33,112 nucleotides of DNA from Deltaproteobacteria bacterium (GTDB lineage: Bacteria; Desulfobacterota; Desulfobacteria; Desulfobacterales; JAFDFH01). A program made the position numbers and the translations under genes. Shown here piece after piece: positions 1,904 through 29,261 of the stretch. The DNA is taken from NCBI GenBank assembly GCA_019309945.1, contig JAFDFH010000001.1:1-33112 (forward strand). Direction: 5' to 3'. Numbering within the stretch: position 1 is the stretch's first letter; every line of letters starts with the position of its first letter. Under the pieces are notes generated by a model. It ran no database searches. It was not told the DNA's origin and saw nothing but the letters and a program-made list of their open reading frames with translations.

Positions 1904-2800
1904 CTATCCAGGCAATCGAGGCAGTAGATACCCGGCCGCCAAAAGAACCGCCAGGTGTCCCAGACAGAGGAGAACAATCAGGCCTCGCATCCATTTTATC
2001 CAGGACAAAGGAACAAACGCAAGAACGGCCAACAACCCGACGGGGATCAGCGGCCAGACCATACCGGTCCAGAAAGGAGATCCGTAGCGCAGAAGAAGCT
2101 GAACACCTTGAAAAAACCAGGGACCGGTAGATAGGGCGGATTCCATATGAGGAGGAATATCCGGAGGAAGCGGACAAAAGACAGCAAGCACGGATAAAAA
2201 TGCAATCAACGGCCAGCCGAGCTCTCCTTTTGGAAAAAGCCGTCTTCTATGCCGTCCCAAAAGGAAAATAACGACCAGGGGGAGGATCACCGTATGATAA
2301 AGATAGGGGAGCAGAAAAAAGTCCGGTCCCGGCCGAAGTAAAGTTCTTGCCAATCCTGAACCGACCAACGGCACGTGCTCGGCAAGGTTCACCATGACCC
2401 GTGCGGCTTGAATCCCTTCCTTGTCCCCTTTAAGGATAAACCCCGTAAAAACCAGAGGAAAACTTAAAAAAAACAGGAAAACAAGTTTCGACCATTCCAG
2501 TGATTTAATATGCTGGTAGGTTTGTCTGAAAAAATGTTCAAATGTATGCCCGATAGTAAACAGCAGAAAGGCTTGGCCACTGAAGTAATGCAATTTTCTG
2601 ATAAACCCACCGTATGGAATTTGTCCGGTAATCTTTGAGACGTTTGTAAAAACATCTCCCCATGGTCGATAATTAAAGGAAAGGATGACACCGGTGACCA
2701 GTGCAAAAAGAAACGCCCACCATGCAAGTTCAGCAAGGGGCCAATGGAATCTTTTGGTTTGGAAATCGTTTGATTGCGGTTCAGATTGAAACGGTTTCAT
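1904..2800 (-). CDS. Cytochrome b / b6-like di-heme membrane subunit
   Basis: 298-aa polytopic membrane protein. It has an H-X13-H pair (LHYFSGQAFLLFTIGH) and an H-X14-H pair (YHTVILPLVVIFLLGRH), the typical bis-His ligand spacing of cytochrome b6-type proteins. It overlaps the Rieske gene by 4 nt. Confidence 0.8.
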   Translation of the reverse strand: MKPFQSEPQSNDFQTKRFHWPLAELAWWAFLFALVTGVILSFNYRPWGDVFTNVSKITGQIPYGGFIRKLHYFSGQAFLLFTIGHTFEHFFRQTYQHIKSLEWSKLVFLFFLSFPLVFTGFILKGDKEGIQAARVMVNLAEHVPLVGSGLARTLLRPGPDFFLLPYLYHTVILPLVVIFLLGRHRRRLFPKGELGWPLIAFLSVLAVFCPLPPDIPPHMESALSTGPWFFQGVQLLLRYGSPFWTGMVWPLIPVGLLAVLAFVPLSWIKWMRGLIVLLCLGHLAVLLAAGYLLPRLPG

Positions 2801-22107: not shown

Positions 22108-22788
22108 ATGAAACACATCCATAACCAGGAGAAGGAACAGTTCAGAAAACTCTTTAAGCAAGAAGAAATTGATAATTTTGAAGATCGATTCAAAATTATG
22201 GAAGTTTTTTTACAAACTGAACGTCATGTTACTTCCAACGAACTGATCCAGCTGCTTAAAGCAAAAGGATACAGTTTCAAATCTGATTTTGTCAGGGATA
22301 CGCTGAAGCTGATGAGCCGCCTTGGTTTTGTCAAGAAAAACAGGTTTGATAATGGATACGTGCGCTATGAACACCGGCACCTGGGTCAACATCATGATCA
22401 TATGATCTGTACAAAATGCAGGAAAATCATTGAGTTTAAGGAGGAAGCGATCGAGAAACTGCAGGTTGAAATTGCATCAACGTATGGTTTTCACATGCTC
22501 CAGCATAAAATGGAAATCTACGGCATCTGTTCCGAATGCCTTAAAGATCGAGTTCAGCGTATCCCTCTGGGGATGGCGAAACAGGGGGAACGACTTGTCA
22601 TTAGAGAATTCACCGGGGGTACTAATGCACATATGCGCTTATTAACCATGGGGTTGAGACTTGGAGATGAAATTGAGGTTGTTACCAATAGTAATAATGG
22701 GCCAATGGTTATTGCCCTTGATTTTAATCGTTTCGTTCTTGGGCGCGGACTGGCCCAAAAGATAATTGTTGAGCCACAAACCGATTAG
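22108..22788 (+). CDS. Fur-family metalloregulator fused to a C-terminal FeoA (SH3-like) domain
   Basis: Residues 1-150 carry a winged-helix region plus the Fur metal sites HHDHMICTKC and CSEC. Residues 155-226 are FeoA-like (GERLVIREFTGG...RLLTMGLRLGDEIEVV...GPMVIALDFNRFVLGRGLAQKIIV). Confidence 0.8.
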   Translation: MKHIHNQEKEQFRKLFKQEEIDNFEDRFKIMEVFLQTERHVTSNELIQLLKAKGYSFKSDFVRDTLKLMSRLGFVKKNRFDNGYVRYEHRHLGQHHDHMICTKCRKIIEFKEEAIEKLQVEIASTYGFHMLQHKMEIYGICSECLKDRVQRIPLGMAKQGERLVIREFTGGTNAHMRLLTMGLRLGDEIEVVTNSNNGPMVIALDFNRFVLGRGLAQKIIVEPQTD

Positions 22789-23163: not shown

Positions 23164-24099
23164 ATGCCGTCCGTTGAACCTGCCTATATAGAAACCTTCC
23201 AAAACGGTTTGTTCAAGGAAAAGATCGAAAAGGCCTATGAACTTTTGCGATCCTGCACCCTCTGCCCCCGAAGATGCAAAGTTGACCGGATGTCCGGCCA
23301 GACGGGCATCTGCAAAACCGGTGAAAGAGCATATGTTTCAAGCTATAGCCCTCACTTTGGAGAAGAGGCTCCCCTGGTGGGGTCACAGGGTTCCGGTACA
23401 ATTTTTTTTACCCATTGCAACCTGTTGTGTATCTTCTGTCAGAATTACGATATCAGCCATAAAGGTTATGGATACGAGAAATCTTCCGAACAATTGGCCG
23501 GCATGATGCTTCAACTTCAAAATACGGGTTGTCACAATATAAATTTTGTAACCCCATCCCATGTAGTTCCCCAGATCCTTGCGGCCTTGGAAGGGGCCAT
23601 TGAGGGAGGTCTCTCGGTTCCCTTGATTTTTAACACCGGGGGCTATGACAGTGTCGAAACCCTTAAAATCCTGGAAGGTGTTTTTGATATCTATATGCCG
23701 GATTTTAAATTCTGGGATCCGGGAATTGCCGATGCGACATGTAAGGCCAAAGATTATCCTGAAATGGCCCGAAGGGCGATTATCGCGATGCACAGGCAGG
23801 TGGGAGATCTTGAGATAGACGAAGCGGGTATTGCCAGGCGTGGACTTTTGATTCGTCATCTTGTACTGCCATCCGGGCTGGCCGGAACACGGGAAATAAT
23901 GAAATTTATCGCCAAGGAAATATCCTTGAACACTTATGTAAATATCATGCCTCAATACAGACCTTGCGGCAGGGCTTCTGAAATGGAGGAACTATCAATC
24001 CGTCTTTCATCCGATGATTATAATAATGCCCTGCAGGCCGCCGAGGAAGAAGGTCTTACACGGCTCGACAGTCGCCGGCGTAGTTTTAAGATTCTTTAA
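23164..24099 (+). CDS. Radical SAM protein, PflX-like (pyruvate formate-lyase activase-related)
   Basis: CX3CX2C cluster CNLLCIFCQNYDIS and an extra N-terminal Cys pair, CTLCPRRC. The length and motif order match the COG1313/PflX type. Confidence 0.8.
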   Translation: MPSVEPAYIETFQNGLFKEKIEKAYELLRSCTLCPRRCKVDRMSGQTGICKTGERAYVSSYSPHFGEEAPLVGSQGSGTIFFTHCNLLCIFCQNYDISHKGYGYEKSSEQLAGMMLQLQNTGCHNINFVTPSHVVPQILAALEGAIEGGLSVPLIFNTGGYDSVETLKILEGVFDIYMPDFKFWDPGIADATCKAKDYPEMARRAIIAMHRQVGDLEIDEAGIARRGLLIRHLVLPSGLAGTREIMKFIAKEISLNTYVNIMPQYRPCGRASEMEELSIRLSSDDYNNALQAAEEEGLTRLDSRRRSFKIL

Positions 24100-24118
24100 T
24101 TCAGCCCATGAGGAGTCC

Positions 24119-24550
24119 ATGAAACCTTATGCCCTTGTTATCGCATCCCTGATTATTTTTTGCAGCAGTGTTGCCCTGGCCGAACGCCTGGCCGTTGCGG
24201 TGCCGGTGGCCAACATCCGTTCCGGACCCGGCACGTCATATGATGTTCTATGGAATGCGGAAAAATATTATCCCATCTTTGTTTTAAAAAAATCCGGTCC
24301 TTGGTATCATATTCGTGATTTCGAGGGGGATGAAGGTTGGGTCCATAAGTCCCTTGTCCGTAAAATTGCATCAATTATTACGATAAAACCAAAATGCAAT
24401 ATTCGTTCCGGTCCAGGCCCCCGCTATGAAATACGGTTTTCAGTTGAGGATGGGATTCCATTCAAGGTTTTAGGACGAAAAGGGAACTGGATTCATATTG
24501 AGCATGCCGATGGAGACAAAGGATGGATTTATAAAACGTTGACCTGGTAA
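24119..24550 (+). CDS. Secreted protein with two bacterial SH3 (SH3b) domains
   Basis: I chose the start at the ATG at 24119, which is preceded by AGGAG (24111-24115) and gives the signal peptide MKPYALVIASLIIFCSSVALA. Two repeats are present: NIRSGPGTSYDV...GWVHKSLV and NIRSGPGPRYEI...GWIYKTL. The longer ORF from 24014 overlaps the preceding gene and lacks an SD. Confidence 0.75.
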   Translation: MKPYALVIASLIIFCSSVALAERLAVAVPVANIRSGPGTSYDVLWNAEKYYPIFVLKKSGPWYHIRDFEGDEGWVHKSLVRKIASIITIKPKCNIRSGPGPRYEIRFSVEDGIPFKVLGRKGNWIHIEHADGDKGWIYKTLTW

Positions 24551-24581: not shown

Positions 24582-25268
24582 ATGGCAAAAAAAAAGATCT
24601 CACGAAAACAACTTTTAAAAGAACCCGATGAGTTTTTGACCGTTTCGAGTAAACTAATTCGATTTTCCATTGAATATAAAAAACAAATTTCATTGGCCCT
24701 GAGCGTGCTGTTTGTCCTCATTGTCGTTGTTTTAGCAATCCGCTATTTTTCAAATAAAGCTGAGGACCAGGCCTTAGCTATGCTGGCAAAGGGTGTCACC
24801 AAATACGAATCCATTTTAAAAGACAAAGGCCCCAACAAGGCTTACCATGAGGTTGAAAAAGATTTCCAACGGATTCTTAAAAAGTATTCAGGGAAAAAGG
24901 GGGGAAATCTTGCAAGGGTAACATATGCCAATATTTGCTACAACGCGGGCGATTCTGATAAGGCAATCGAACTCTTTCATACCGCCCTGGATGACTTTGA
25001 CGATAACCCTGCATTAAGAGATCTTATTTTAATCGGCCTGGGCTATTCCTATAAAGAAGCGAAGGATTACAAGACTGCAGCACAGTATTTTGAAATGGTT
25101 GCTTCCAGGACTGATTCCATCATGAAGGACGAGGCGCTCTTCAATCTTGGTTGGCTTTATGCCGAAATAGGTGATCCCGATAGAAGTAACGACGCCTATA
25201 AAAAGATACTTTCTGACTTTACGGATTCCATCTATTTTGATCTGGTTAGAGAGAAAGTGGCCGGATAG
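24582..25268 (+). CDS. Membrane-anchored TPR-repeat protein (YfgM-like architecture)
   Basis: N-terminal basic segment plus one TM (ISLALSVLFVLIVVVLAI), followed by TPR-like repeats. SD GGAGG lies upstream. Confidence 0.7.
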   Translation: MAKKKISRKQLLKEPDEFLTVSSKLIRFSIEYKKQISLALSVLFVLIVVVLAIRYFSNKAEDQALAMLAKGVTKYESILKDKGPNKAYHEVEKDFQRILKKYSGKKGGNLARVTYANICYNAGDSDKAIELFHTALDDFDDNPALRDLILIGLGYSYKEAKDYKTAAQYFEMVASRTDSIMKDEALFNLGWLYAEIGDPDRSNDAYKKILSDFTDSIYFDLVREKVAG

Positions 25269-25301
25269 TTCTTTCTTGGAAGGATCCTTTGGGTTATTTA
25301 C

Positions 25302-25341
25302 AAAAAAAAACGACTAACCGAGAAATTACCGATTAGTCGTT
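25302..25341 (-). terminator. Strong rho-independent terminator oriented for minus-strand transcription
   Basis: The minus strand reads AACGACUAAUCG-guaauuucu-CGGUUAGUCGUU, a stem of about 12 bp, followed by U9 (A9 at 25302-25310 on +). In the + orientation no U-tract follows the hairpin. Confidence 0.75.
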
Positions 25342-25376
25342 AAGGGGGAAAACAGATAAAGAAATTATTAGGTTGT
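25302..25376 (-). ncRNA. Candidate sigma54-dependent small RNA of about 75 nt (prediction only)
   Basis: Bounded by the predicted sigma54 start (about 25376) and the U9 terminator. It has no ORF and contains a single-stranded-looking UUUUCCCCCUUAA stretch complementary to SD-like AAGGGGGAA. Confidence 0.4.
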
Positions 25377-25386
25377 TTTTAAATTA

Positions 25387-25402
25387 TGCAAATAGTTTGC
25401 CA
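25387..25402 (-). promoter_or_regulatory. Sigma54 (-24/-12) promoter candidate
   Basis: The minus strand reads TGGCAA-ACTAT-TTGCA, which matches TGGCAC-N5-TTGCW with exact spacing. Confidence 0.5.
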
Positions 25403-25525
25403 AACTGGTACTTTATTATTCACATTGTCTATGAACCAATTATTTCATATATTTTTCAATGGGTTATATTTAAATTAAATTTTAAGTTAAAAAACTACAT
25501 GATTAGAAACCATATTTTAAATAGG

Positions 25526-25571
25526 AATAGTTTCCAAGTGGAAACAAGCTTGTTTCCACTTGGAAACTATT
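25526..25571. promoter_or_regulatory. Perfect 46-bp palindrome made of two 16-bp inverted repeats, GTTTCCA-n2-TGGAAAC; candidate enhancer (UAS) for an NtrC-type activator
   Basis: AATAGTTTCCAAGTGGAAACAAGCTTGTTTCCACTTGGAAACTATT, verified base by base. The sub-sites are centred 22 bp apart and lie 125-170 bp upstream of the sigma54 -24 element across an AT-rich spacer. The palindrome itself is certain; the UAS role is inference. Confidence 0.45.
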
Positions 25572-25707
25572 TATGTCTAAAAGCAAAGCCGGTAATCAAA
25601 AAAAACCACTACTAGCCTTCAGGGATAGAAGATATAACAAATAATCAGACTTGAGTTTCAGCAAAATTCAGGCCAAGCTGCAGAAAAATTGCCGCAAAAT
25701 GCACACT

Positions 25708-25846
25708 GAGACCTTTGAAAAATGGTAATTTTTTTTCGCATTCAAGGAAGGCGATCAAATTTTAAATCAGGTTCAACCACAGGAATATATTGAATATTTC
25801 GAGGATTGAAAAAAATTACCGGATGGCGTAGCGGGCCTACCGGAAC
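25708..25846 (+). repeat. Chimeric family-2 repeat, copy D: left two thirds of family 2 joined to the terminator-type right module
   Basis: 25708-25812 aligns with 21940-22043 (copy C) with about 5 substitutions. From 25806 it instead matches the module at 120-172. There is no right-hand TIR. Confidence 0.6.
25809..25843 (-). terminator. Intrinsic terminator of the HK / NtrC-type regulator operon (carried by the repeat module)
   Basis: The minus strand reads CCGGUAGGC-ccgcuac-GCCAUCCGG (4 + 3 bp stem with an internal loop) followed by UAAUUUUUUU. It begins 4 nt after the TAA at 25847-25849. Confidence 0.5.
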
Positions 25847-27226
25847 TTATTGAGAAGTTACTTGGATGCTATGCTTTCTTATTTTCTTGTTAAAGCCGCT
25901 TCTTCCGATTCCGAGTAATTCGGCTGCATTGGACTGGACATTGTTGGTCAACTGTAAGGCCCTTTCAATCATTTTTTTTTCAATTTTGTTAAGGGTTTCA
26001 TGTAATTTTGCATTTACAGGTATCCCGTCAAGGTGATGGGTATCGTAAACATTGTCCTTAAAATCCTTGGGAAGGTCAGAAACCGTTATGATTTCTCCGG
26101 GACACAGAATTATGGCCCTTTCAATAACATTTTCGAGTTCACGAACATTTCCGGGCCATCTGTAATCATAGAAAAGACGTTCAACCTCTGGATCCACATC
26201 CACTATCGGGATGTCGGATCTTCGTTCATCTCTATATTTTTTTATAAAATGATCAATGAGCACGTGGATGTCCTCTATACGTTCCCTTAACGGCGGTAAA
26301 ACGATGGACAACACATTCAGCCGATAAAAAAGATCTTCCCTGAATCGTCCTGCCTGGATCTCCTCCTTTAACCTTTTGTTCGTGGCAGTAATAATGCGGA
26401 TATCGACAGAGATCGATTTAACTCCGCCGACCCTTTCGAAAACCTTTTCCTGGAGAATTCGCAGAAGCTTTACCTGGAGGTTTTGTGAAAGATCACCGAT
26501 TTCATCAAGAAATAGCGTTCCACCGTCAGCCAGTTCAAAGCGTCCTTTTTTCATGGCCATTGCGCCCGTAAACGACCCTTTTTCATGGCCGAAGAGTTCG
26601 CTTTCAAGAAGATTCTCCGAAAGCGCGCTGCAGTTCACCGCAACGAAGGCTTTAGCGCGTCTTGAGCTGTTAAAATGGATTGATTTCGCAACAAGCTCCT
26701 TGCCCGTGCCATTTTCGCCTTCGAGGATTACCGTTGCCGTGGTGGGCGCAACTTGCCGGATGGTTTTGAAAACCTCCTGCATTTCTTTACTTTTTCCGAT
26801 AATGTTTCCAAAACCGAATCGGGATTCCATAGCCGAGCGAAGCTCTCTGTTTTCCTTGACCATTCGATACATTTCAAGGGCCTTGTTCACATAAATAACC
26901 AACCGCTCGTTGTCGAAAGGTTTAAGGATATAGTTGTAAGCCCCTTTCTGCATCGCCTCGACTGCTTTTTCGACGGTACCGTATGCCGTCATCATAATGA
27001 TGGGAAGTTTCGGATCTTTCATTTTTACTTTTTCAAGCAGCTCAATGCCGTCCATTACGGGCATTTTCATGTCTGTAAGCACCAGGTCGACATCGGAATT
27101 TTCCAATATTTGAAGGGCTTCTGGCCCGCTGTTGGCCGTAAAGGTTTCAAAGCCCTCTTCTTTCAAAACCGCACTTAATATCGGCGGATAATTTTTTTCA
27201 TCATCGACAATTAAAATTGTCTCCAT
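25847..27226 (-). CDS. Sigma54-dependent response regulator (NtrC family: REC + AAA+ + Fis-type HTH)
   Basis: REC domain with DD...D...K pattern (ILIVDDE, LVLTDMKMP), Walker A GENGTGKE, GAFTGA-type loop GSFTGA, ESELFGHEKG, and C-terminal HTH AAELLGIGRSGFNKKIRK. Confidence 0.9.
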   Translation of the reverse strand: METILIVDDEKNYPPILSAVLKEEGFETFTANSGPEALQILENSDVDLVLTDMKMPVMDGIELLEKVKMKDPKLPIIMMTAYGTVEKAVEAMQKGAYNYILKPFDNERLVIYVNKALEMYRMVKENRELRSAMESRFGFGNIIGKSKEMQEVFKTIRQVAPTTATVILEGENGTGKELVAKSIHFNSSRRAKAFVAVNCSALSENLLESELFGHEKGSFTGAMAMKKGRFELADGGTLFLDEIGDLSQNLQVKLLRILQEKVFERVGGVKSISVDIRIITATNKRLKEEIQAGRFREDLFYRLNVLSIVLPPLRERIEDIHVLIDHFIKKYRDERRSDIPIVDVDPEVERLFYDYRWPGNVRELENVIERAIILCPGEIITVSDLPKDFKDNVYDTHHLDGIPVNAKLHETLNKIEKKMIERALQLTNNVQSNAAELLGIGRSGFNKKIRKHSIQVTSQ

Positions 27227-27228
27227 AT

Positions 27229-28656
27229 TTATACTCCCGGGTCTATCGGTATTTTGATGGCGACGTGAGCACCGCCATCCGGTCTATTGTCAATCGATAT
27301 GCTGCCGTAATGGGACTCGATAATATTTTTTACGATCCCGAGGCCCAGCCCGGTTCCTTTACCCTTGGTCGTAAAAAATGGATCCCATATCTTTTCCATA
27401 ATATCTTCCGCAATACCTTCCCCTTCATCTTGAAAACATATCGTTACGTTATTCCTATTTTCATCCGATGTGATTTCGACCCGGATCTTTCCACCCGCCG
27501 GCATCGCCTGCATGGCATTGATCAGGATATTAAGAAAAGCCTGATACAGCATATCAGAATCAGCCATTATTTCAGGGAGGTTATTCCCATAATGTTTCTC
27601 AATCCGATAATCCTGTTCCCTCAACTGTGAATCAAGATATATGATATTTTTTTCAACAACGTCCGTAACATTGCAGGGGAGAAAGTTCGGAATTTTTGGT
27701 TTCGCAAAATTTAAAAAATCGGTTATAATATAATTAAGTCGACCTGCTTCTTCAACGATAATATCGGGAATAGGGTTTGAATGATCAAGGCTGGACATTT
27801 TTTTCTTTAACAGTTCGGCTGAACTTTGGATGATGCCTAGAGGATTTCGTATCTCATGGGAAATCCCGGCAACCATCTCGCCCAAAGTAGACAAGTGCTC
27901 GGCGCGACTGAGCTGCTCTTTGAGTCTGAGTCTTTCCAAAGCCCGTTTTTGAAAGACGCCTTCACCTCTTTTCACCACCAGAAGAAGAACTAGAAAAAGA
28001 GCACTCATGATCAAGGCACAGGTCGTAATAATATGGACTTGAAAGCTAAAAATGCTCTTATCGTCTTCTGACAGATTCTGTACAAGTTCAACCACTCCAA
28101 GCACCGGACCCGAAATCCTGGAAAGCGGCTTTTCAGCGCGCAGGGGCGCAAATGTAATCAACATGCTTTCTTTTGGAAATCCGAGCAACATTTCCCAAAA
28201 ATTGCCTCTTTGAACCAACTGTGACGTGGATTTTCCTGCAAGTGCGTTCTGAAAGCCCGTACCCCCTAAATCCTTTTGGCCGATGAGCGATGGATCAAAG
28301 CTATAGGAAATGATGTTATTCTTATCGTAGATGTTTACCATATCTAATTTGAAGCTATGAAGCGTGGTTCGAACCACCTTGTCCATGTGTTCAAACTGGT
28401 CTTTATTGCGGAGTTGTATCTTGCCAAATTTTAAAGCGACCGGAATGACGAACTTCAAAAAAATCTGATGGTTAAGGTTTTCTACCAGCAAGCGGGCATA
28501 GTCTTCACTTTTCCTGAGTTGCAAATCCCTGGCCCAACGCGTGTTCAGTAAGGAGAGTGCAATCGTTCCAATAAAAATGATCACAAGGCTTGTAAAGGTG
28601 AAGTATTTAACGAGCCTGAACGGTTTTACTTTTTCTTCGGAAGATCGGGGTTTCAT
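27229..28656 (-). CDS. Sensor histidine kinase (two TM helices flanking a periplasmic-type sensor, HisKA, HATPase_c)
   Basis: H-box ISHEIRNPL and G-boxes DEGEGI / GTGLGLG. I chose the start at the ATG at 28656 (MKPRSSEEK...), which is preceded by AAGGA. The ORF-track start at 28680 is a GTG without an SD. The stop lies 2 nt from the regulator start. Confidence 0.85.
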
Positions 28657-28683
28657 ATCCTTTATCACCAGCAAGATCACTAA

Positions 28684-28745: not shown

Positions 28746-28790
28746 TGTTATACCCGAACCCTGCAGATGGGACGTTATTATTTTTTAAAT

Positions 28791-28819
28791 CATATATGGA
28801 AACTAACGTTTTAAGTCAA
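28791..28819 (-). promoter_or_regulatory. Sigma70-like promoter candidate for the HK / regulator operon
   Basis: The minus strand reads TTGACT, 17 nt spacer, TATATG. The spacer contains a GTTTCCA heptamer identical to the half-site of the 25526-25571 palindrome. Confidence 0.35.
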
Positions 28820-29044
28820 GGTAAAGCTTTATTATCATTGCGATGATGTTATCTGGCGCCATTCGACATGACCCCAAAAAATGGGCCGACAAAAATGTAG
28901 GTCCCCTTCAAATTTGTTATTCATATGTTGATTTTTACCCATTTAAATTTTCTGGATGATCAAATATCTTTGGTTCCAAAATAAATTGATATTTCAAAAG
29001 GATAGCACTGTTCTCGCCTAACATGAGTGATCCATTGGTACGAT

Positions 29045-29060
29045 TGGCATCCTTCTTGCT
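29045..29060 (+). promoter_or_regulatory. Second sigma54 (-24/-12) promoter candidate
   Basis: TGGCAT-CCTTC-TTGCT with exact consensus spacing. It lies in the 685-bp divergent region between the HK operon and the XRE-pilM operon. Confidence 0.4.
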
Positions 29061-29140: not shown

Positions 29141-29190
29141 AATATACCATATACAATATGCAGGAAATGTACTAAACTTGCCACAATATA

Positions 29191-29232
29191 GTGTAATTTA
29201 ATATAATTTAAGTATAATTAAGTATAATTTTC
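29191..29232 (+). repeat. Four tandem 10-11 bp AT-rich units (TGTAATTTAA / TATAATTTAAG / TATAATTAAG / TATAATTTTC) abutting the -35 element
   Basis: Read directly. The helical-phase periodicity suggests curved DNA, an UP-like element or iterated binding sites. Confidence 0.5.
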
Positions 29233-29261
29233 TTGACAAGGTAGAATTGTCAAAACATAAT
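29233..29261 (+). promoter_or_regulatory. Sigma70 promoter with overlapping inverted-repeat operator, upstream of the XRE-pilMNOPQ operon
   Basis: TTGACA (29233-29238), 17 nt spacer, CATAAT (29256-29261). The inverted repeat TTGACAA-n7-TTGTCAA (29233-29253) covers the -35 and the spacer. Confidence 0.55.

Follow-up and report, generated by a model that had tools for sequence, protein, structure and literature searches.

We examined a small RNA (sRNA) locus in a 33,112-nt stretch of DNA from a Deltaproteobacteria bacterium of the Desulfobacterales (contig JAFDFH010000001.1, positions 1 to 33,112 of the forward strand; hereafter, the window). Here, a gene pair for a sensor histidine kinase and an NtrC-type response regulator is followed, on the same minus strand, by a candidate sigma-54-dependent transcription unit. 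An earlier note, made by reading the sequence alone, had drawn attention to this unit and interpreted it as an activator-dependent sRNA gene. The two genes and the parts of the unit are as follows.

27229..28680, minus strand: sensor histidine kinase gene (Pfam HisKA and HATPase_c)
25847..27226, minus strand: gene for an NtrC-type response regulator, a bacterial enhancer-binding protein (Pfam receiver, Sigma54_activat and HTH_8)
25526..25571, no strand assigned: upstream activator sequence, two 16-bp dyads GTTTCCA-NN-TGGAAAC
25403..25525, no strand assigned: AT-rich spacer between activator sites and promoter (79.7% A+T)
25387..25402, minus strand: predicted sigma-54 promoter TGGCAAACTATTTGCA, with -24 GG and -12 GC at exact spacing
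25342..25376, minus strand: unstructured 5' region of the sRNA, with predicted +1 near 25376 and seed UUUAUCUGUUUUCCCCCUU
25302..25341, minus strand: Rho-independent terminator (13-bp stem, 7-nt loop, U9)

The kinase has two predicted membrane segments around an extracytoplasmic domain of about 165 aa that has no family match, and in NCBIfam it obtains sub-threshold AtoS/ZraS-like matches only; its gene lies upstream of the regulator gene in related loci as well. The regulator combines a sigma-54 AAA+ domain (Pfam Sigma54_activat score 1.1e-71) with a C-terminal DNA-binding domain of the Fis type (HTH_8), whose recognition helix reads SGFNKK. Its sigma-54 contact loop, around residue 225, is GSFTGA where the canonical form is GAFTGA, a variant also given for DVU2394 and DVU3220 (Kazakov 2015, PMC4641369).

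The earlier note had described five elements in the order and spacing expected of an enhancer-dependent unit, and this observation is confirmed at the minus-strand positions listed above, with one small correction. The palindrome is present as described: the 46 bp of 25571-25526 (minus strand), AATAGTTTCCAAGTGGAAACAAGCTTGTTTCCACTTGGAAACTATT, form a perfect palindrome made of two GTTTCCA-N2-TGGAAAC dyads (GTTTCCAAGTGGAAAC at 25567-25552 and GTTTCCACTTGGAAAC at 25545-25530) with 22 bp between their centres, which lie at about -184 and -162 relative to the predicted start. Apart from these two dyads, nothing in the 33-kb window matches GTTTCCANNTGGAAAC exactly. The AT-rich spacer, put at about 125 bp, measures 123 bp (25525-25403) and has 79.7% A+T, against a G+C content of 44% over the whole window; the proposal that it serves IHF binding or bending is suggestive only, being based on an IHF-like match inside the spacer (25466-25454, TAACCCATTGAAA) and on similar matches in 102 relatives, about a third of which show them clustered between -70 and -40. 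The promoter TGGCAA-N5-TTGCA is found at 25402-25387 with exact spacing, and its core is invariant in relatives. As a motif alone it is modest evidence: the exact pattern TGGCA-N6-TTGCW has two occurrences in the window where 0.22 would be expected (two or more in 3 of 100 shuffles), and one mismatch allowed gives six matches against 5.2 expected. The predicted transcript, 25376-25302 on the minus strand, is 75 nt long, contains no ATG or other open reading frame (ORF) and carries UUUAUCUGUUUUCCCCCUUAA, bearing out the claim of an ORF-free stretch of this length with a segment complementary to a Shine-Dalgarno sequence. At its end stands the hairpin followed by U9, with a stem (25341-25309) of 13 pairs, one of them G-U, rather than the 12 first counted; the terminator scan matched on the minus strand only, as the earlier note had supposed. 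For the 75-nt RNA the minimum free energy is -15.5 kcal/mol (z = -4.55); the seed region (nt 1-35) is unpaired in both the minimum-free-energy and the centroid structures.

This arrangement recurs well beyond the window. Scanning the regulator protein against species-representative genomes gave about 40 orthologous loci at 57-78% identity, none of them outside Desulfobacterales and relatives, and in 10 of these species genomes the promoter, pyrimidine-rich block and terminator lie 3' of the regulator gene on the same strand (L001, L003-L006 and L035-L039; L-numbers denote the related loci compared, 200 in all, about 1.4 Mb). Among these carriers are the culturable Desulfospira joergensenii DSM 10085 (L035:5645-5750; NZ_ATUG01000002.1, about 1418462-1418567, minus strand) and the Olavius algarvensis Delta 3 symbiont (L037:5825-5930; CAFBRK010000234.1). 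A metagenome scan with a promoter-plus-seed pattern returned at least 120 loci, and about 105 of the 122 pattern matches, among the matches listed, are clearly the sRNA unit. We then applied a covariance model built from 21 sequences, which recovers at least 97 copies at E<1e-3 in the related loci and gives the window copy 106.6 bits, one of the family's highest scores. In regulator-anchored loci the model matches solely downstream of the regulator gene and on its strand. Kinase, regulator and sRNA genes stand on one strand, facing a convergent tetratricopeptide-repeat (TPR) gene, in at least about 53 metagenome loci, and the TPR gene is present before the contig end in at least about 13 more. 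The enhancer-dependent unit is thereby seen to keep its order and orientation downstream of orthologous kinase-regulator pairs, and promoter, dyads and terminator are all conserved in the loci that bear the sRNA.

Conservation within the unit is uneven in an informative way. Across the 21 aligned family sequences TGGCA and TTGC never vary, the 14 nt past the -12 element are variable, and conservation restarts at the predicted +1, a pattern that fits a start of transcription some 12 nt past the -12 GC. Of the transcribed blocks, the seed (UUYAUCUNUUUUYYYCCUU in the family) is the best conserved, and within it the block UUCAUCUGUUUUUCUCCUUAA is the reverse complement of UUAAGGAGAAAAACAGAUGAA, a Shine-Dalgarno sequence separated by an 8-nt spacer from a start codon. 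At the position opposite the G of AUG, C is replaced by U (UUUAUCU) in the window and a dozen relatives; this change keeps the pairing, as G-U, but turns the opposite-strand ATG into ATA, which fits a pairing RNA and not an opposite-strand ORF. Past the seed, no reading frame is conserved on that strand, and we rejected an opposite-strand ORF at 25373-25615 (80 aa, TTG start), together with the reading of the seed as its Shine-Dalgarno sequence and ATG, on the ground that neither the ATG nor what follows it is conserved. The orientation-specific T-run, the promoter and the substitution pattern all agree, and we therefore take the minus strand as the functional one.

The terminator is conserved in the opposite manner, by structure. 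Compensatory changes affect 9 of its 13 pairs in the 21-sequence MAFFT alignment. Across 93 distinct sequences aligned to the covariance model, a fit that inflates pairing somewhat, 96.2% of cells are paired against 58% when shuffled, double (compensatory) changes occur at all 13 pairs, and the covariation score is 1.009, a value reached in 0 of 500 shuffles, against 0.268 for shuffled alignments, with slid-partner controls at 0.29 or below. The independent MAFFT alignment agrees with the model-fitted one on the pairing of the terminator. A hairpin and T-run directly follow the seed in 107 of 115 pattern matches (metagenome loci among the matches listed, genome loci and the window), and 92 distinct hairpin sequences are found among 100 unique RNAs, again among the matches listed; the hairpin sequence is free to vary while its pairing is kept.

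The activator sites, for their part, vary together with the regulator. Nearly all loci in the family carry two 16-bp GTT-N10-AAC dyads at about -145 and -225 from TGGCA, and the proximal one, about 145 nt before TGGCA in relatives, corresponds to the proximal site of the window. The commonest form in relatives is GTTCAAAATTTTGAAC, with sites 78-91 bp apart. The window type, GTTTCCA-NN-TGGAAAC at a distance of 21-22 bp, is also found at L001, L003, L004, L085, L089, L106, L140, L173 and L199, and the 22-bp spacing, with the perfect 46-bp palindrome that results from it, is a minority arrangement within the family. Wherever a regulator C-terminus is available, loci with window-type dyads have a recognition helix of the form LLGIG(K/R)SG(F/L)(N/S)KK, and about 50 loci with the common dyad have SGLN(W/Q)K. 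On a neighbour-joining tree of 74 regulator orthologues these site types are interleaved: L001, of the window type, is sister to L139, of the common type, and L003 and L199 adjoin the L006/L103 clade. Within the sister pair, the dyads are of the GTTTCCA type in L001 and of the GTTCAAA type in L139, and the helices of their regulators match. The interleaving implies either that the matched change took place at least twice or that the DNA-binding domain was exchanged. This helix-site covariation is the best available evidence on the cognate activator, and it ties the putative operator to the adjacent regulator.

Taken together, these observations give strong comparative support to the earlier interpretation as an sRNA. 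As far as comparison of sequences can tell, the unit is real, fixed in orientation, bounded by its predicted promoter and terminator and coupled to the regulator family; from the same comparisons we infer dependence on sigma-54 and the regulator, the start site, the base-pairing mode and the sign of regulation. We consider it probable that the locus is a stand-alone gene for a trans-acting sRNA, about 74 nt long, whose family is widespread in Desulfobacterales and had not been catalogued before. On this proposal, the kinase (27229-28680) would sense an extracytoplasmic signal and phosphorylate the regulator (25847-27226), which would bind the two GTTTCCA-NN-TGGAAAC dyads some 160-185 bp upstream of the start and act across the bendable AT-rich spacer, so that sigma-54 polymerase could open TGGCA-N6-TTGCA. 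We base these steps on the behaviour of NtrC-family activators and on the helix-site covariation. The RNA would start near 25376 and stop at the hairpin-U9 near 25302, and its 5' region, UUUAUCUGUUUUCCCCCUU, would pair with one or more mRNAs from genes elsewhere, over the stretch from Shine-Dalgarno sequence to start codon, blocking the initiation of translation. Pairing with initiation regions, and repression as its outcome, are suggested by the complementarity of the seed to a Shine-Dalgarno sequence, an 8-nt spacer and AUG, and translational repression is the likeliest mode of action. In most members conservation of the 35-nt 5' region extends well past the anti-Shine-Dalgarno core, the complement being AUGAAGAAAUUAUUAGG (MKKLLG), which hints at a single, dedicated target. 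Dependence on a chaperone (Hfq or ProQ) would be in keeping with the U-rich 3' tail.

Several results weigh against this proposal, besides the inflation of pairing in the model-fitted alignment. At least about 35 sRNA copies have no regulator or TPR gene nearby, and about 28 regulator orthologues adjoin the TPR gene directly with no linked sRNA. About one sRNA copy in three is unlinked to the regulator. Adjacency of regulator and sRNA is thus not obligatory, and the coupling of the regulator to its sites therefore rests on their covariation; the recognition helix in regulator-only loci is of the SGLNQK type, the unlinked copies keep GTTCAAAATTTTGAAC dyads, and it is plausible that in regulator-only genomes, such as CP070694.1, the same regulator controls an unlinked sRNA copy. 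The seed of the window reads CCCCC where most members have CCUCC. Searches for a target also counted against the proposal: with the seed, a duplex scan across the entire window yielded only the trivial antisense site and a weak one at 2261-2310 (+), the best non-trivial duplex, which at -25.7 kcal/mol over GGGGGAGG-N9-AUG is not distinguishable from chance; a fuzzy search for the seed complement in the 200 related loci gave no credible site; and for the neighbouring genes (kinase, regulator and TPR) the start regions showed no enrichment across loci, with median z values of -0.05, -0.59 and -0.73, as for any Shine-Dalgarno sequence.

Four rival accounts, improbable even when taken together, have to be set beside the trans-acting, base-pairing sRNA. 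The absence of an mRNA target in the window, the related loci or the neighbouring genes would fit an RNA that titrates a protein without pairing to mRNA, as a CrcZ-like Hfq/Crc sponge or a Csr-type one, and the closest architectural analogue, cbrB-crcZ, is indeed a protein sponge. We nonetheless think titration quite unlikely: the RNA is short, has a single conserved, pyrimidine-rich, single-stranded block and contains no repeated GGA or A-rich motifs, and its seed is exactly complementary to a Shine-Dalgarno sequence plus 8 nt plus AUG, with C/U changes that keep the pairing.

A transcript that is real but acts in cis on the convergent TPR gene, by transcriptional interference or by pairing with a read-through 3' untranslated region of its mRNA, the hairpin being mainly a shared terminator, seems to us very unlikely. 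The geometry invites it, as the TPR gene follows the sRNA convergently in most linked loci, only about 34 nt separate the end of the sRNA from the TPR stop codon (gene at 24582-25268, plus strand, in the window), and the hairpin is situated between the two. However, the convergence of regulator and TPR genes is equally conserved in orthologous loci without the sRNA, which marks the synteny as ancestral gene order, and at least about 35 copies, including some after metK-ahcY, lie in settings that lack a TPR gene. Moreover, the T-run follows the hairpin on the sRNA strand only, the conserved part is the seed and not the 3' end, and the TPR start region shows no enrichment of complementarity to the seed.

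We give little credence to the idea that the unit in the window is a non-functional remnant, or that its palindrome, rather than binding a protein, is a repeat element or forms an RNA hairpin. A decayed copy does adjoin the unit, the window seed deviates at CCCCC, and the palindrome, if transcribed, folds at -31.4 kcal/mol; against this, the window copy scores among the family's best, every element of the unit is intact, the dyads of most relatives, at 78-91 bp apart, could not form a single hairpin, and the dyads follow the regulator recognition helix across loci. Least credible is a leader or attenuator for a downstream gene, or the mRNA of a tiny peptide, with the sRNA as a by-product: four unlinked copies have a same-strand gene for an iron-type alcohol dehydrogenase 3' of them (at L180 it starts about 40 nt after the terminator) and the opposite strand of the seed reads as a Shine-Dalgarno sequence and ATG in many members, but the next gene is convergent in the window and most loci, the transcript has no start codon, the opposite-strand ATG has become ATA in the window and a dozen relatives with no frame kept beyond it, and a strong terminator comes directly 3' of the seed in 107 of the 115 copies considered above.

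Read as a trans-acting sRNA, the transcript belongs to no recognised family, in agreement with the earlier note, which had not recognised it as a member of the glmY, qrr1 or pxr families: Rfam scans placed it in none of Qrr, GlmY/GlmZ, Pxr or CrcZ. Rfam 15 gave no match at the gathering threshold in the window or in 10 related loci, and over 25200-25900 at E<=10 there were only sub-threshold matches with chance-level scores (LhrC, 19.6 bits against a gathering threshold of 110; RsaOG, 21.3 against 50). Literature searches for this sRNA family in Desulfobacteraceae found no description.

Known RNAs offer partial parallels. GlmY, beside glrK-glrR, and the Qrr RNAs, beside luxO, are sigma-54-dependent sRNAs encoded next to their cognate activator genes; GlmY acts by protein mimicry and the Qrr RNAs have four stem-loops, and the window RNA differs from both in structure and seed and matches neither in Rfam. 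RsaE/RoxS and LhrC use an unpaired C/U-rich motif, followed by a terminator, to pair with ribosome-binding sites, but they have other promoters, occur in other taxa and have no sequence relationship to the window RNA. At the cbrA-cbrB locus of Pseudomonas a kinase, an NtrC-type regulator and CrcZ, a sigma-54- and regulator-dependent sRNA, share one strand as here, and read-through from the regulator gene is possible there as in the layout of the window. CrcZ, however, is an Hfq/Crc sponge of about 400 nt with repeated A-rich motifs, in contrast to an RNA of about 74 nt with a single anti-Shine-Dalgarno seed. Pxr, encoded beside nla19 in Myxococcus and relatives, likewise lies 3' of the gene for a sigma-54-dependent response regulator under its own sigma-54 promoter, with tandem paralogues in some genera; yet it comes from a different bacterial order and is a processed RNA of about 108 nt with three stem-loops, where the window RNA has one terminator hairpin and an unstructured seed, and no Rfam match at either threshold.

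The taxonomically nearest parallels are in Desulfovibrio vulgaris Hildenborough, for which four sigma-54-dependent non-coding RNAs (ncRNAs) are recorded (Rajeev 2011, PMC3333781; Kazakov 2015, PMC4641369). Two of them lie immediately 3' of response-regulator genes, DVU0653 and DVU0679 (Dv_sRNA2), their function listed as 'posttranscriptional regulation' (PMC3333781; PMC4641369); their promoters are given at genome positions 724743 and 750515 (PMC4641369). Like the window unit, these belong to sulfate-reducing 'Deltaproteobacteria', place the sRNA gene directly 3' of a two-component NtrC-type regulator, and have tandem palindromic sites (theirs two or three, of 16-18 bp) followed by a -24/-12 promoter. 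Their site motifs, CGTGCG-N4-CGCACG and TGTCCGC-N4-GCGGACA, are unlike GTTTCCA-N2-TGGAAAC, and the helix-turn-helix (HTH) of the window regulator is identical to theirs at only 11 of 42 and 7 of 42 positions, fewer than for several unrelated D. vulgaris activators. On site motif and HTH identity we find no support for orthology with the DVU0653 and DVU0679 regulators. The best D. vulgaris HTH match is instead DVU3305, at 21 of 42 (up to 27 of 42 for relatives), described as a 'general stress' regulator that has protein-coding operons as targets and the site TGTTGCA-N3-TGCAACA (Kazakov 2015, PMC4641369). This likeness may be taken as a lead on physiological context, not as a test. No sites of the DVU0653, DVU0679 or DVU3305 type occur in the related loci searched. 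The RNA family is new; the architecture of an sRNA beside a sigma-54 regulator is already known, from DVU0653/DVU0679, pxr/nla19 and crcZ/cbrB.

Between the regulator gene and the activator sites lie two further features.

25809..25848, minus strand: weak hairpin and U7 just past the regulator stop codon (fold -11.7 kcal/mol, z = -2.0)
25579..25675, minus strand: decayed tandem copy of the sRNA unit (covariance model, 21.9 bits, E about 0.02)

On the minus strand the regulator stop codon at 25847 is followed by this hairpin and U7; some 130 nt with nothing remarkable come next, then a -24/-12-like element (25675-25660) and the palindrome. The hairpin had no match in the consensus terminator scan and is probably the terminator of the kinase-regulator operon. 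The decayed copy, a full-length match and the second-best of the covariance model in the window, has the -24/-12-like sequence TGGCCTGAATTTTGCT, a diverged seed, a degenerate hairpin and no activator sites of its own, and its fold (z = -0.68) is no better than that of shuffles. Because it lies in between, the gap from regulator to promoter is about 200 nt longer than in L003 and L004.

Other members of the family depart from the window in copy number, form or setting. Two intact tandem copies, each with its own promoter and upstream dyad or dyads, are found at L001 (5597-5709 and 5881-5998) and on the minus strand of L139 (2387-2274 and 2105-1991). A second subtype, seen at L035, L036 and at least about 50 metagenome loci (for example, L098:6459-6564), carries an additional 5' hairpin, CUAAC-loop-GUUAG; its seed is UUUUUUCAUCUUUUUUUCCUUUUCU, and A-U pairs lengthen its terminator stem (AAAAAGGCUGC...GCAGCCUUUUU). 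A divergent member at L038:5773-5884 (48.4 bits, seed UUCUUCAUCGGCUUUCCUCCUG) implies that the family reaches beyond the pattern used in the metagenome scan. Unlinked copies lie 3' of metK and ahcY, genes of the SAM (S-adenosylmethionine) cycle, at L082, L104, L118, L125, L150, L154, L159, L177, L180 and L183, with no regulator gene in up to 14 kb. At L082, L104, L136 and L180 the gene for the iron-type alcohol dehydrogenase follows the sRNA on the same strand; we considered this gene as a target and rejected it, its complementarity to the seed being of the generic Shine-Dalgarno kind.

Elsewhere in the window, the only other exact sigma-54 consensus, TGGCATCCTTCTTGCT at 29045-29060 (+), lies in the 890-nt gap from the kinase gene to a gene with an XRE-type HTH (followed by pilM), and has a possible hairpin about 50 nt 3' of it. 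It was rejected as a second unit of this kind, having no GTTTCCA-type dyads and lying outside the conserved blocks. Those non-coding blocks upstream of the kinase gene, 28779-28840 and 29181-29237, are 75-87% identical across many of the related loci; the first may serve the kinase-regulator operon as its promoter region, and the second contains a sigma-70-like promoter, TTGACA-N17-TAATGT, directed towards the HTH and pilM genes. On the other side, an ORF at 22108-22788 (+) joins a Fur-family domain and a C-terminal FeoA domain in one protein, and is followed by a radical-SAM gene (23164-24099), an SH3-domain gene (24014-24550) that overlaps it by 86 nt as listed, and then the TPR gene.

In marine sediments, Desulfobacterales dominate among the complete-oxidising sulfate reducers, and to our knowledge almost nothing is known of their RNA regulators. 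The family described here is well bounded, comprises about 100 sequences and is ready for Rfam curation; it offers a defined promoter, an activator site, a candidate cognate two-component system and a clear seed for target prediction, and its natural series of matched helix and site changes is useful for the study of specificity in NtrC-type activators. That sigma-54 activators in these lineages often control a nearby sRNA is not a new pattern, and its extension beyond Desulfovibrio and Myxococcus is a solid, unsurprising finding. A bolder proposition, which we regard as doubtful, is that the sRNA is the main or only direct output of the two-component system, and that the regulator-operator pair has been re-specified more than once within one orthologous group while the RNA stayed unchanged. 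If the sRNA is the main output, an extracytoplasmic signal would be converted into translational control by RNA, through a seed (CCUCCUUA in most members) that would copy the anti-Shine-Dalgarno 3' end of 16S rRNA, extended over the start codon. If the re-specification is true, the locus would be a natural model for a joint specificity switch of a transcription factor and its site.

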